Source: Candidatus Hydrogenedentota bacterium (GTDB taxonomy: Bacteria; Hydrogenedentota; Hydrogenedentia; Hydrogenedentales; SLHB01). From it: a stretch of 64,000 bases of DNA. The DNA lies in assembly GCA_963668025.2 (NCBI GenBank), contig CAXXTH010000022.1, positions 1 to 64,000 of the forward strand, read 5' to 3'. The notes under the pieces were generated by a model, which did no database searches, was not told the origin of the DNA, and saw only the letters and a program-made list of their open reading frames with translations. A program made the position numbers and the translations under genes. This document shows, in pieces, positions 7,350-10,284 of this stretch (position 1 is the first letter of the stretch; the number at the start of each line of letters is the position of its first letter).

Positions 7350-7701
7350 ATGAAAAAGCGCCTGCATGTTATAAATGAGTTGGGTCCTATCGTGAAACGA
7401 TGGCGTTTCCAAAAGCTTTGGCAAGGAGATACGCATGCCGTGCGCCTGGCGGCTGTGTTTCTGCTGTCGCTATATGCCTTGGCGCTGGGCCATGAATTCA
7501 TCGTAGATGACCACGATGGCGCGCATTGCGGTTTATGCCTGTTGATGGCCAGTCCCAGCCTAGTGGCGGCGGCCGTCTTATTGACAGTTACGCTTGCTGC
7601 TGTTGCAACTAGTTTTTTTTCGCTTCCAATACATCCCCCCTTGCGGCTCCCCATGCCGCATCGAATACCGCCGTGGCCCGCCTCGAACAATCTTACATTA
7701 G
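7350..7701 (+). CDS. DUF2946-like His/CxxC leader peptide with RGPP arrest motif (copy 1), broken by a +1 frameshift at the T8 run 7613-7620
   Basis: MKKRL...TM...GHEFIVDDHDGAHCGLC...; removing one T gives FQYIPPCGSPCRIEYRRGPPRTILH*, collinear with the paralog at 8897. Confidence 0.75.
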
Positions 7702-7795
7702 TTTCGTTCTGTAAATCGGTGAAACGCACCCCAGAAGGTTTTATGCCTCTGGGTGAGTTCATCTTATCTTTTCGTATTCATACAGGAGATTGTTC
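7685..7795 (+). promoter_or_regulatory. Putative RBS-sequestering RNA structure between leader 1 and prepilin-like gene 1
   Basis: GAACAATCT (7685-7693) is the exact reverse complement of AGATTGTTC (7787-7795); CTGTA/TACAG (7709-13/7781-85); inner imperfect stem CACCCCAGAAGG/CCTCTGGGTG. Confidence 0.6.
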
Positions 7796-8803
7796 ATGCG
7801 TAAGCAAGGATTCACACTCATTGAATTGCTGGTGGTGATCGCCATCATCGCGATTCTGGCGGCAATATTGTTGCCCGCCTTGGCGCGCGCACGGGAAGCC
7901 GCCCGCCGGGCCAGTTGCCAGAGCAACTTAAAACAACTCGGCATCGTCCTCAAGATGTATGCGGCGGAAAACCGGGACCGGTTTCCCGTGCTTAAATCAC
8001 TCAATTGCCATGGCGAGCTCGTACCCTTCTCCCCCACGCCCGATCCGGACGCAATTTTTCCGGATTATTTAAATGACTGGAGCATATTGATTTGCCCAAG
8101 CAATCCCGCAGGGAGTGATCCCGTCGAAACTTGGGACGAAGGGAATTGCATGTCGGAACAATGGGAGGAAGTAGATGGCTATTCGAACGATGGGAAAGTC
8201 ATGCCTTGCGAAGTATTTGACCATCCCTACATGTATTTGAGCTGGGCAATGAACAAGAATTATTTCCCAGATGACAACAGCGCTACAACAAATGTAAACG
8301 AGCGCGAGTATGCATACGAGTGCTTCCTGGCCGCCATGGAAGGGATGGTTCATGACCTTGTCCAGTACGGCGAAGCGCTTGAAAGCGCCGGAAGCAATAC
8401 AACTCAAGTCACTTACGTGAAAGACGAGGTAAAAAAATACTTACAGTCGGATTGGAAATTCACCAATGAAAACGACGTGGCCATCACCGTAGGCGGGACA
8501 TCGAGTGTTCCCCATTTACGGGAAGGCGTCGAGCGGTTCTTCATCACGGACATCAACAATCCCGCCTCCGGCAGTTCGGCGCAATCGACGCTGCCGGTCA
8601 TGTGGGATGCATTGGGCGAATCGGAAGAAGGCGAGACGCCCCATTTCAACCATGTGCCAGGCGGCTGCAATGTGTTGTACATGGATGGGCATGTGGAGTT
8701 CCAACGGTATAAAGGCTTAATGGGCAATGCGTTCCCCGTCGACGAAGGCGGCATCGTCGTACATGAAGGGAGCCATATGGCTGTCCATGAGCATGATGAG
8801 TAA
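7796..8803 (+). CDS. Type IV prepilin-like DUF1559 protein with C-terminal H-X9-DG-type motif and His-rich tail
   Basis: [30 protein letters not shown]-methylation motif; [17 protein letters not shown]; ends [22 protein letters not shown]. Confidence 0.92.
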
Positions 8804-9483
8804 TGATAATCGTGTAAACGGTTCGTACAACGGAAGAAGACGCTGGTTAGGCCGTGGACCAGCGCTTTCTCCAGACTGCCTGAAAAGCATATCCACATGA
8901 AGAATCGCCTTTATAACAAAAAAGCGAAGCTTCGCTTTCCATTAACTCGCTTAGCCTGGGACAGACGAGGGATACGCCTGACGGCGATTGCCCTCATAGC
9001 GTTGTATGCCTCCGCGCTGGGCCATGAATTTTTGATTTGCAGCCATGATAGCCACCACGACGCGGAGCATTGTGGTTTATGCGCCCTCATGTCGGTCTCG
9101 TCTTTAGTCACAGCGCCGGTAGCACTATGGCTTTGCCTTGTCGTCGCCGCAGCCATGCTTCCAGCTTTTCATGCAATTCCATTCTGCGGCCCACCTTGCC
9201 GAATCGAGTACCGTCGAGGCCCACCGCTACTCCTCCTTTCATAACTCACATTCCTGTTTGACGAGGCCGCCGCCATATGGCTCCATGCCAATGGGAGGCT
9301 TTGTTAGGTGTCTTTATGGATTCATGATCTGAGTCACGTGGGAGATTTTATATGTATAAGCGTGGATTTACCCTAATCGAGCTCTTGGTGGTGATCGCCA
9401 TCATCGCGATTCTGGCGGCAATATTGTTGCCCGCCTTGGCGCGCGCGCGGGAAGCCGCCCGCCGGGCCAGTTGCCAGAGCAAC
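7830..9483 (+). repeat. 98-bp near-identical direct repeat (7830-7927 / 9386-9483) in the pilin alpha-helix coding region
   Basis: Direct comparison shows one mismatch (7891 A vs 9447 G), while the flanking codons have diverged. Confidence 0.85.
8897..9244 (+). CDS. DUF2946-like His/CxxC leader peptide with RGPP arrest motif (copy 2, intact)
   Basis: Basic N-terminus, TM, GHEFLICSHDSHHDAEHCGLC, second hydrophobic stretch, CGPPCRIEYRRGPPLLLLS*; RGPP codons at 9215-9226. Confidence 0.8.
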   Translation: MKNRLYNKKAKLRFPLTRLAWDRRGIRLTAIALIALYASALGHEFLICSHDSHHDAEHCGLCALMSVSSLVTAPVALWLCLVVAAAMLPAFHAIPFCGPPCRIEYRRGPPLLLLS

Positions 9484-10284
9484 CTGAAACAAATGGGCGT
9501 TGTCTTTATGATGTACGCCAGCGAGAACAAAGGGAAATACCCCACCCAGCATACTTGGTATGGGAAAGGCGAGAACAAGGTATATGACCCTTGGAGGCTC
9601 ATGTTCGAGGGCACGCAAGTGTATCCCGAATACCTGAATGATCCGAACATCCTGATTTGCCCGTCGGCGATCGCCGGTGTGGATGCCGTCGAGCGTTTCG
9701 ATGAAGGCAAAGGCGACACGTGGTTTTTCGAGTGGGAAGACCTGGCGACCGGCGAAGGCACTAATGATGGGAAAGTGCAGGCGTGCGAGCTTACCTCGAC
9801 TCCCTATTGTTACGCGGGATGGTTTTTCAGTAAGGAGATGAAATTGCGGGTAGGTGAAAACACCAATTCCAATGGGATTCTTGCCTATATGCTGTCCGAT
9901 ACCACGGGCGCGCTCAAAGAAAAAGACTTGCCTTTGCTCGAGCCCACCACGGAATATCCCAGCAATACGATTCGGCGGCTTCGGGAAGGCATCGAGCGTT
10001 TTTTTATCACGGATATCAACAATCCGGCTTCTGGCGCGACGGCGCAATCAAATATCGCGGTAATGTGGGACGCCATGTGCGGCGGAACAAACGAGCATTT
10101 CCCGCACAAACCAGGCGGTGGCAATGCGCTGTTCATGGATGGCCATGTGGAATTCCAGCGGTATCACCAAAACATACAAGACGATACGCAGTTTCCCGTA
10201 GGCGCGGGCGGCTTCGCGATACATAATATAGAGCCGCGTGCGTGGAAGAGTTACGTTTTACCAAGGATGACCGTGCAGAAATAG
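9352..10284 (+). CDS. Type IV prepilin-like DUF1559 protein with H-X9-DG-type motif
   Basis: [12 protein letters not shown]...; [41 protein letters not shown]. Confidence 0.92.

Follow-up and report, generated by a model that had tools for sequence, protein, structure and literature searches.

The window analysed here, positions 1-64,000 of the forward strand of contig CAXXTH010000022.1 (assembly GCA_963668025.2) from a Candidatus Hydrogenedentota bacterium (Hydrogenedentales; SLHB01), carries two successive cassettes, each composed of a small upstream open reading frame (uORF) that ends in an Arg-Gly-Pro-Pro (RGPP) motif and of a gene for a prepilin-type protein of the DUF1559/H-X9-DG family. 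This two-cassette arrangement of leader and prepilin gene is a real, conserved feature. Comparative analysis of the cassettes suggests that each of them probably consists of a CruR/CutF-type (DUF2946-like) arrest leader and of the pseudopilin gene under its control, a metal-modulated translational arrest in the leader unmasking the ribosome-binding site of the pseudopilin gene. The leader is found in the 6.15-Mb genome of the organism only in these two copies, against at least 66 DUF1559 matches, and the arrangement recurs in relatives, which argues for more than chance.

Organization of the two cassettes

The leader of the second cassette (leader 2) is intact. Its 115 residues comprise, in order, a basic N-terminus, a hydrophobic segment (LTAIALIALYASALG), a polar stretch (HEFLICSHDSHHDAEH), a CGLC motif opening a second hydrophobic segment, and a C-terminus that ends in CGPPCRIEYRRGPPLLLLS at the stop codon. 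Leader 1, as written in the window, is broken by one extra T (Table 1): its N-terminal part is read in the frame of the ATG at 7350, and its C-terminal part, CRIEYRRGPPRTILH followed by the stop (7654-7701), lies in the +1 frame. The decapeptide CRIEYRRGPP of leader 1 (7654-7683) is likewise in the +1 frame relative to this ATG, whose own frame stays open to 7838 and never encodes it. In this form, which has a run of eight T (T8), the leader 1 frame crosses the intergenic region and ends 40 nt inside the pilin gene; where the RGPP codons stand, it happens to read R-I-P-P.

Aligning the DNA of the two cassettes leaves cassette 2 one base short between the T8 run and a C6 run. One letter at 7613 was missing in the contigs of public runs X1 (depth 3.5/3.5) and X3 (47.6/47.6), whereas the T8 of the window was matched by the contig of run X2 (2.9x), which comes from the same sample as X1. 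The T7 form was present in two of the three public runs covering the leader 1 site and lacking in the third, the evidence being that of assembled contigs, with two of the three runs at low depth. Removal of one T yields a 116-residue open reading frame (ORF) homologous to leader 2, with a spacing of 44 residues between the CxxC motif and the arginine of RGPP in both. We read the extra T as an assembly error or as a minority or population variant, and the disagreement between X1 and X2 may reflect either a sequencing error or a phase-variable switch. A programmed +1 frameshift was set aside, since, given the T7 contigs of X1 and X3, the T8 is more simply explained by an assembly error or a population variant.

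An earlier note on this DNA had described two homologous small leader ORFs sharing CRIEYRRGPP five residues before the stop and lying about 95-110 nt upstream of prepilin genes. The distances agree with those measured, 94 nt (7702-7795) in cassette 1 and 107 nt (9245-9351) in cassette 2. The description of the ORFs holds for leader 2, leader 1 being frameshifted in the window as given, and the shared C-terminus, with RGPP five residues before the stop in both leaders, fits the likely true T7 sequence and not the T8 form of the window. The two leaders are each other's closest relatives, with 47% identity and the same last decapeptide before the tail.

Table 1. Positions of the two cassettes, their landmarks and other features in the window
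Feature	Position	Strand	Basis
Leader 1, cruR-like uORF, broken in the window by one extra T	7350..7701	+	ORF reading, DNA alignment, public-run contigs
Leader 1, CxxC codons	7527-7538	+	
T8 homopolymer carrying the frameshift	7613..7620	+	Cassette alignment, public-run contigs
Leader 1, RGPP codons	7672-7683	+	
Anti-Shine-Dalgarno arm in the leader 1 tail codons directly after Pro-Pro, pairing with 7786-7795	7685..7694	+	RNA folding
Leader 1, stop TAG	7699-7701	+	
Shine-Dalgarno AGGAGA and spacer of gene 1 (7786-7795 forms the 3' arm of the sequestering helix)	7784..7795	+	
Gene 1, prepilin-type DUF1559/H-X9-DG, 335 aa; C-terminal HExxH followed by a His-rich tail	7796..8803	+	Profiles, alignment, model
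Leader 2, cruR-like uORF, intact, 115 aa	8897..9244	+	ORF reading, family profile, alignment
Leader 2, H43	9023-9025	+	
Leader 2, CxxC (C59-C62)	9071-9082	+	
Leader 2, RGPP	9215-9226	+	
Leader 2, stop	9242-9244	+	
Shine-Dalgarno GGGAGA of gene 2	9340..9345	+	
Gene 2, prepilin-type DUF1559/H-X9-DG, 310 aa; sub-branch ending IHNIEPRAW..., without HExxH	9352..10284	+	Profiles, tree
Terminator-like hairpin after cassette 2, 16 pairs (12 G-C), T-rich tail	10294..10329	+	
Extracytoplasmic function (ECF) sigma factor and DUF4097 protein	5070-6667	-	
Membrane protein of 141 aa, without family	6808-7233	+	
DDE transposase (DDE_Tnp_1 + DUF772)	12012-13391	+	
Glycoside hydrolase family 38 (GH38) alpha-mannosidase over at least two frames (N domain 15369-16574, C domains 13741-15060, third ORF between)	13741-16574	-	
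S41 peptidase	29189-30787		
Predicted permease ArsP_1 fused to a heavy-metal-associated (HMA) domain	37805-39076	-	

Conservation of the leader family in Hydrogenedentota

Relatives were sought in 135 genomes from 66 genera of Hydrogenedentota. A single-sequence search gave matches in 30 genomes and a first set of 29 loci outside the organism's own genome, 25 of which consist of a leader homologue followed by a prepilin gene. At two others (L017 and L020) the leader stands before another operon, and the last two (L024 and L037), which have no leader-like ORF, were dropped as false matches. Alignment of the 25 relatives with leader 2 revealed a mean identity of 28% and only six invariant positions, namely H43, C59, C62, R107, P109 and P110; two histidines ahead of the CxxC are invariant or nearly so. 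The CxxC is present in all 26 leaders, where it opens the second hydrophobic segment, and it lies 43 residues before the arginine in 15 of them, 44 in 10 and 42 in one. The RxPP motif, 2-8 residues from the stop, is RGPP in 18 leaders, RAPP in 6 and RSPP in 2.

The hydropathy profile is also alike in all 26 leaders. A basic N-terminus (1-10 Lys and Arg, 0-1 Asp and Glu) precedes a first hydrophobic segment of 12-18 residues, mostly 15, followed by a polar His-rich stretch, by the CxxC with the second hydrophobic segment, and by a neutral stretch reaching the arginine. The export signal was assessed by hydropathy only, and the residues at -3/-1 do not always fit a signal peptidase site.

A search with the leader profile found 117 places in 86 of the 135 genomes and 46 of the 66 genera, and the 88 places that were not in the first set form a second set. 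In 85 of these 88, an RxPP motif lies within 15 residues of the stop (RGPP 46, RAPP 27, RSPP 6, RDPP 5, RPPP 1), the remaining three being two places cut at a contig end and a dubious one; a CxxC stands 42-45 residues before the arginine in 69. A prepilin gene comes after the leader in 68 second-set places (58 at first pass and 10 more within 900 nt downstream), another gene in 17, and 3 reach the contig end. L162, without an RxPP motif and with no family downstream, was set aside. Overall, a prepilin gene follows 95 of the 117 places (114 assessable, 3 cut by a contig end), these being counts of mutually related loci; in the relatives' loci of the first set it lies on the same strand, 79-279 nt after the leader. 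Conservation of the uORF-DUF1559 linkage in relatives, on which the earlier note had staked its reading, is borne out by these counts.

Variants of the pairing were also observed. At six loci, leaders without CxxC and ending in ...PNSHRGPP (in one case ...SPPRRGPP) precede prepilin genes whose products have C-termini (...VNRYVAECLSAIPYALSF) without the His-rich motif. In two Planctomycetaceae records of metagenome-assembled genomes (L121 and L129), very His-rich uORFs ending in RGPP, whose CxxC precedes the arginine by 43 or 46 residues, are found ahead of ordinary DUF1559 genes that encode no His tail, at distances of 244 and 313 nt. The pairing of leader and DUF1559 gene hence reaches beyond Hydrogenedentota, and to RGPP.

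Relation to DUF2946, CruR, CutF and known arrest peptides

The DUF2946 profile (Pfam PF11162, gathering score 23.7 bits) matched 15 of the 26 leaders at E <= 0.01, with a best value of 6e-6. A six-frame search of the genome with this profile gave 23.3 bits, and 23.8 bits with neighbouring stretches in frame. The membership foreseen in the earlier note is therefore supported by the CxxC, the RxPP, their spacing and the matches of the relatives, although the window leaders themselves fall just under the cut-off. Judged by every defining feature at the sequence level, the leaders probably belong to the DUF2946 family.

CruR (Bp2923) of Bordetella pertussis, encoded upstream of the TonB-dependent transporter gene bfrG, resembles the leaders described here: its gene is short and opens an operon, the N-terminus looks like an export signal, a CXXC motif and an R-A/G-P-P a few residues from the stop stand at a fixed spacing (45 in CruR, 42-44 here), and the intergenic region is long. 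In the CruR family, the CXXC, the C-terminal RAPP and the spacing of 45, kept within one or two, are reported for more than 2000 members; all three are described as needed for copper regulation of bfrG, and the arrest motif as required for downstream expression (PMC9426467). CruR is also reported to arrest in vitro (PMC12992588). The systems differ in the motif, RAPP in CruR and mostly RGPP here, in the downstream genes, a TonB-dependent transporter/PepSY pair there and a prepilin-type DUF1559 protein here, and in the output, which involves Rho-dependent termination in CruR, whereas a helix sequestering the Shine-Dalgarno (SD) sequence is better supported here. Copper is the input of CruR, and the Pfam score of the window leaders lies just below the cut-off.

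According to the model given in a preprint for CutF of Rhodobacter capsulatus, a DUF2946 protein encoded before the multicopper oxidase gene cutO, the exported nascent leader senses metal and stalls near its C-terminus, and the stalled ribosome melts a stem-loop shielding the downstream ribosome-binding site, which is the mechanism favoured here. CutF differs by its CXXXC and EF-P-sensitive PPP motifs, in place of the CxxC and the RGPP, reported as EF-P refractory, of the present leaders, and by its downstream gene, cutO and not DUF1559. RGPP is described as giving the most robust arrest, refractory to EF-P, the first and second prolines being in the P and A sites, respectively; RSPP and RDPP are given as partially permissive (PMC12992588). 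ApcA, listed in the earlier note among the RAPP/RGPP arrest peptides, does not belong there, as it carries RAPG according to the same source. ApdA and ApdP share with the present leaders a C-terminal RAPP/RGPP core and a small secretory or membrane protein upstream of a gene on the same strand, but they precede genes of the Sec/YidC pathway and not DUF1559 prepilin-type genes. Since the gene that they precede does not belong to the localisation machinery, the leaders are not Sec/YidC monitors of the ApdA/ApdP type; SecDF genes were found near one relative's locus (L047), on the other side of the pilin gene.

The leader-linked DUF1559 subfamily

Both downstream genes start with the GFTLIE prepilin cleavage/methylation N-terminus, and three profiles scored above their cut-offs in each of them, in agreement with the earlier assignment to prepilin-type DUF1559/H-X9-DG proteins: N_methyl (35.9 bits, cut-off 21.2), DUF1559 (PF07596; 42.3 and 44.7 bits, cut-off 23.3, only the first 34-45 profile positions being matched) and H-X9-DG (TIGR04294; 25.3 and 22.5 bits, cut-off 19). 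A FastTree analysis of the 66 prepilin-type paralogues of the genome and 23 leader-linked proteins of relatives, with Shimodaira-Hasegawa-like (SH-like) support only, placed all 25 leader-linked DUF1559 proteins in one group of 26 rows (support 94). The sole non-linked row is an own paralogue (C18) on a long branch, without a leader upstream, and 62 other own paralogues fall outside the group. The gene of cassette 2 branches with those of L025 and L031, that of cassette 1 with L018 and the majority; as the two genes belong to different sub-branches, the cassettes did not arise by a recent tandem duplication of the pilin genes. About 100 nt following the prepilin motif are near-identical in both genes (7830-7927; from about 9385), and in the contigs of X1 and X2 position 9385 is connected back to 7830. 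With leaders that are closest kin and near-identical pilin starts, set beside pilins of different sub-branches, gene conversion within the locus may have occurred.

Leader-linked and ordinary DUF1559/H-X9-DG proteins of Planctomycetota and relatives have in common the GFTLIE N-terminus, the PF07596 N-terminal part and the TIGR04294 motif. The leader-linked proteins differ from leaderless paralogues by their length (279-335 residues in the first set; most own paralogues have about 340-387), by their grouping in the tree, and mostly by a C-terminal HExxH/His-rich helix. Within their last 30 residues, 21 of the 25 leader-linked proteins have an H[EK]xxH motif, often followed by a His run, a signature that the earlier note does not mention; a single one of the 66 own paralogues has it, the product of the cassette 1 gene. 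Of the 61 complete proteins of the second set, 34 have the motif (33 of the 54 behind CxxC leaders versus 1 of the 7 behind CxxC-less leaders), and several more of these proteins have looser, HE...H-rich tails. In the alignment, the cassette 1 protein displays three invariant cysteines (C41, C100 and C138) and a nearly invariant one (C71).

The AlphaFold2 model of the cassette 1 protein (predicted local distance difference test 77.1, predicted template-modelling score 0.78) places the HExxH on a C-terminal helix (residues 317-334). Its best match in the PDB by Foldseek had an E-value of 0.99, and a VIA-wide search gave a best Z of 5.5 for a generic helical hairpin, PilA4 (Z 4.7) and EpsG (Z 4.4) scoring lower, so that apart from the N-terminal pilin helix the solved structures show only a weak likeness to pilins or pseudopilins. 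The structure search of this model speaks neither for nor against a metal site. When PDB sequences were searched with a profile, the N-terminal pilin helix and nothing else was matched. The genome encodes one prepilin peptidase and has 16 T2SSE ATPase matches above cut-off, which indicates that machinery for pseudopilin processing and assembly is available. In a locus search with the pseudopilin alignment, an upstream RxPP ORF was seen in 4 of 78 loci among the matches listed, which were mostly other DUF1559 paralogues. Taken by sequence comparison, the leader-linked proteins form a distinct DUF1559 subfamily of predicted prepilin-peptidase-processed pseudopilins.

Predicted pairing between the putative arrest site and the downstream ribosome-binding site

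RNA folding of cassette 1 predicted a 10-bp helix between the leader tail codons that directly follow Pro-Pro and the SD/spacer region of gene 1. This helix (7685-7694/7786-7795) is found in both the minimum free energy and the centroid structures (-39.1 kcal/mol, z -2.0; 8 of 200 shuffles folded as well), and 7679-7681 also pairs with 7798-7800, enclosing the AUG. A ribosome arrested with 7678-7680 in its P site would cover the 5' arm of the helix. Among 26 leader loci, the SD was predicted to be paired (unpaired probability below 0.3) in 22, with a mean unpaired probability of 0.20, compared with 0.46 for the SD of 65 own prepilin genes, 35% of which fall below 0.3. Bases that would lie under the stalled ribosome account for 30% or more of the SD pairing in 15 of the 26 loci.

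Duplexes between the arrest-proximal 28 nt and the SD were then compared for cognate and non-cognate pairs of 27 loci, a comparison used in place of a sliding-window scan. Cognate pairs gave a mean of -14.1 kcal/mol, against -11.0 kcal/mol for non-cognate ones, and none of 5000 permutations reached the cognate mean. The tail peptides that follow Pro-Pro vary freely (LLLLS, RTILH, FTSV, LTA and others) while the complementarity to the cognate SD is kept, which fits selection acting on the RNA and not on the peptide.

No Rfam match at E <= 1 was found within 6600-10600; a sigma-70 promoter scan, which gave one site against a shuffle mean of 3.8, was not used; and six-frame counts of RGPP/RAPP versus AGPP/AAPP in the organism's own genome were dominated by spurious frames and uninformative, so that no depletion is claimed.

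Metal-related contexts of sister leaders

Leaders of the same H...CxxC...RxPP type also head genes other than prepilin genes: a CDF gene fused to Band 7 (L157), two outer-membrane efflux (OEP) genes (L134 and L140), two ABC ATPase genes (L133 and L170), a catalase gene (L154), and, at two loci (L049 and L050), an ABC-2 transporter operon ending in a DUF1007-NicO fusion. These contexts point to a transition metal, not necessarily copper, as the putative input of the leader, and no recognised copper gene was present among the genes downstream of the leaders. Efflux genes are normally switched on by an excess of their substrate, and the sister leaders heading CDF and OEP efflux genes therefore favour induction by metal excess, as in the logic of CutF. 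A Zur study of Caulobacter lists, in a table, a DUF2946 gene before the czrCBA efflux genes (PMC4176598).

A further group of leaders was seen at nine loci, in relatives of families f2/f3, where the glutamyl-tRNA reductase gene hemA (GlutR_N + Shikimate_DH) lies 45-311 nt downstream. These leaders have the same two-segment build, a His motif LHG..P..W.HH, GPFRILLF in place of the CxxC, and the ending W[LT]LRGPP; they may exert an arrest-peptide control of tetrapyrrole synthesis.

Proposed mechanism and alternative explanations

In the mechanism that we propose, the product of the first gene would matter as a nascent chain. Its basic N-terminus and first hydrophobic segment would bring the ribosome-nascent chain complex to the membrane translocon. 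By analogy with RAPP/RGPP peptides elsewhere, translation would then arrest at Arg-Gly-Pro-Pro, the two Pro codons occupying the P and the A site, respectively. About 46 residues would separate the second Cys from the peptidyl-transferase centre at this stage, and, given the usual length of the ribosomal exit tunnel, the sensor segment should stand just outside it. A transition metal (Cu, Zn, Ni/Co or Cd) bound to the His...His...CxxC could set the lifetime of the arrest, either prolonging it, as in CutF, or relieving it, as in CruR; we lean towards the CutF-like logic, in which the metal would prolong the arrest and turn the gene on. The arrested ribosome would cover the pyrimidine-rich tail/stop region that otherwise pairs with the SD and the start region, and translation of the pseudopilin would be switched on. 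This SD unmasking is the favoured output, the RNA models supporting it for cassette 1 and most relatives and only weakly for cassette 2. The control of a DUF1559 gene by a CruR/CutF-type arrest leader, proposed in the earlier note, is thus supported by the invariant His, CxxC and RxPP, by their spacing, by the genetic linkage and by the arrest-site/SD complementarity. The C-terminal HExxH/poly-His helix suggests that the pseudopilin may bind the same kind of metal in the envelope. Somewhat speculatively, the leader-linked DUF1559 proteins could be metal-binding pseudopilins whose HExxH/poly-His helix captures or buffers a transition metal in the periplasm or on a short pseudopilus, their synthesis being gated by a nascent-chain metal sensor acting across the membrane.

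Several observations weigh against this scheme. SD unmasking is not supported for cassette 2, which has no robust SD helix (fold z-score -0.24) and whose predicted SD accessibility drops from 0.16 to 0.07 with a modelled stalled ribosome. Of the 26 loci, no more than 10 show a gain of at least 0.2 in predicted accessibility, and when the SD was scanned for duplexes in sliding windows along the entire leader, the positional enrichment was weak, with a best-10% rank in 27% of loci. The DUF2946 scores of the window leaders, 21.9 bits (E 3.1e-4) for leader 2 and 22.1 bits (E 2.7e-4) for leader 1 in frame 0, remain just below 23.7. The pseudopilin of cassette 2 is of the minority type that ends in IHNIEPRAW and has no HExxH, and the cassette 1 model gave no fold match pointing to a metal site and no metalloprotease-like match. 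No metal-homeostasis gene adjoins the cassettes in the window or in the loci of 12 relatives, where the neighbours are housekeeping genes (S41 peptidase, RNase PH-like genes, ClpX, SecDF and similar). Finally, the mutual relatedness of the loci means that their counts are not independent events.

Regarding the output, the same leader and arrest could act as in CruR, the stalled ribosome blocking Rho and its release allowing Rho-dependent termination in the long intergenic region. The length of the intergenic regions (79-279 nt), a trait noted for cruR operons (PMC9426467), and the lack of a robust helix in cassette 2 would suit such a polarity. We nevertheless consider it rather unlikely, as the base composition of the intergenic regions is not skewed towards C and away from G (mean C 0.28, G 0.26; C 0.20-0.21 versus G 0.21-0.27 in the window), the complementarity between cognate arrest site and SD is significant, and cassette 1 has a clear 10-bp SD helix. 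As to the input, the leader might monitor thiol redox state or disulfide formation, the state of its CxxC reporting oxidative folding and tuning the production of a cysteine-bearing pseudopilin. The invariant CxxC of the leaders and the three invariant and one nearly invariant cysteines of the pseudopilin agree with this idea, as do the enrichment of RAPP/RGPP uORFs upstream of DsbA and thioredoxin genes in a published survey (PMC12992588), the disulfides invoked in the CutF model and the sister leader before a catalase gene. Such a monitor would, however, leave aside the two invariant or nearly invariant His ahead of the CxxC, the sister leaders before CDF, OEP and NicO genes, and the His-rich tails of the controlled proteins, which track with CxxC leaders; we regard it as unlikely.

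Pseudopilins need the Sec/SRP (signal recognition particle) pathway, and a plain membrane-insertion or secretion monitor of the SecM, MifM or VemP type, in which a pulling force releases the arrest with no metal input, could match pseudopilin synthesis to export capacity. Two hydrophobic segments and a C-terminal RGPP correspond to the build reported for Sec/YidC monitors (PMC12992588, PMC10987492). This explanation appears very unlikely to us, because the downstream gene encodes no component of the localisation machinery, a pure force sensor needs neither an invariant His/CxxC nor a fixed spacing of 42-45 residues, and sister leaders occur in metal-efflux contexts. The leaders could also be stable membrane metallochaperones or partners of the pseudopilin, with an incidental RGPP and no regulatory arrest, a role for which residues resembling metal ligands and two membrane segments would be appropriate. 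It is hard to reconcile, though, with a sequence that is free to vary outside six invariant residues, with an RxPP kept near the stop in 85 of 88 second-set places, with the standing of RGPP as the most avoided tetrapeptide in many phyla (PMC12992588), or with a tail that varies as protein after Pro-Pro and stays complementary to its cognate SD, and we hold it to be highly improbable. The metal-modulated arrest leader unmasking the pseudopilin SD accordingly remains our preferred reading.

Other features of the window

Just upstream of cassette 1 lie the ECF sigma factor, the DUF4097 protein and the small membrane protein of Table 1, and about 1.7 kb separate the DDE transposase from cassette 2. 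The pilin gene of several relatives has an S41 peptidase gene and RNase PH-like genes directly after it; the S41 peptidase gene of the window is far off. Elsewhere in the window, the ArsP_1-HMA fusion was recorded, as was a GH38 alpha-mannosidase split over at least two frames, through either a frameshift in the gene or an error of assembly; the split stretch contains no long homopolymer.

Published data and significance

Few paralogous families without a known function in Planctomycetota and allied phyla are as large as DUF1559. Of the four papers naming DUF1559 in the library searched, none is about leaders and none gives a function, and terms for arrest peptides and pilins did not occur together among the best 15 of 176 matches. 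The pairing is nonetheless in print as data. In the Fig. 4B source table of Fujiwara et al., EMBO J 2025 (PMC12992588), DUF1559 is one of 30 enriched downstream groups, with 112 RAPP versus 68 AAPP uORFs (6.46-fold, adjusted p 1.05e-31), and the uORF list of that study includes His/Cys-rich RAPP uORFs, some annotated DUF2946, before DUF1559 genes. The survey assayed none of its DUF1559-linked uORFs, and the name DUF1559 has no occurrence in its main text or in PMC9426467, so that the pairing is absent from discussion in the text. The novelty claimed in the earlier note accordingly holds with respect to the characterised examples, where the pairing is absent, but not with respect to these source data. 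A specialist's surprise will be limited for the same reason, the survey already showing RAPP/RGPP uORFs before many gene classes and listing DUF1559 among them.

What the present analysis adds is the phylum-wide distribution of the pairing, the DUF1559 subfamily with a His-rich C-terminus and its co-occurrence with CxxC leaders, the metal-efflux contexts of sister leaders, the complementarity between arrest site and SD, and the diagnosis of the frameshift in leader 1. The pairing would carry control of the CruR/CutF type beyond the copper genes of proteobacteria, into an uncultured phylum and a new class of output. A conserved, putative arrest leader standing before one distinct DUF1559 subfamily provides a concrete, testable handle on which metal is sensed and in which direction control is exerted. 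If the metal-binding pseudopilin reading were true, these cassettes would represent a pilus-type metal handling system, and this would be the first functional assignment for any branch of DUF1559 in Planctomycetota, Verrucomicrobiota, Hydrogenedentota and their relatives.

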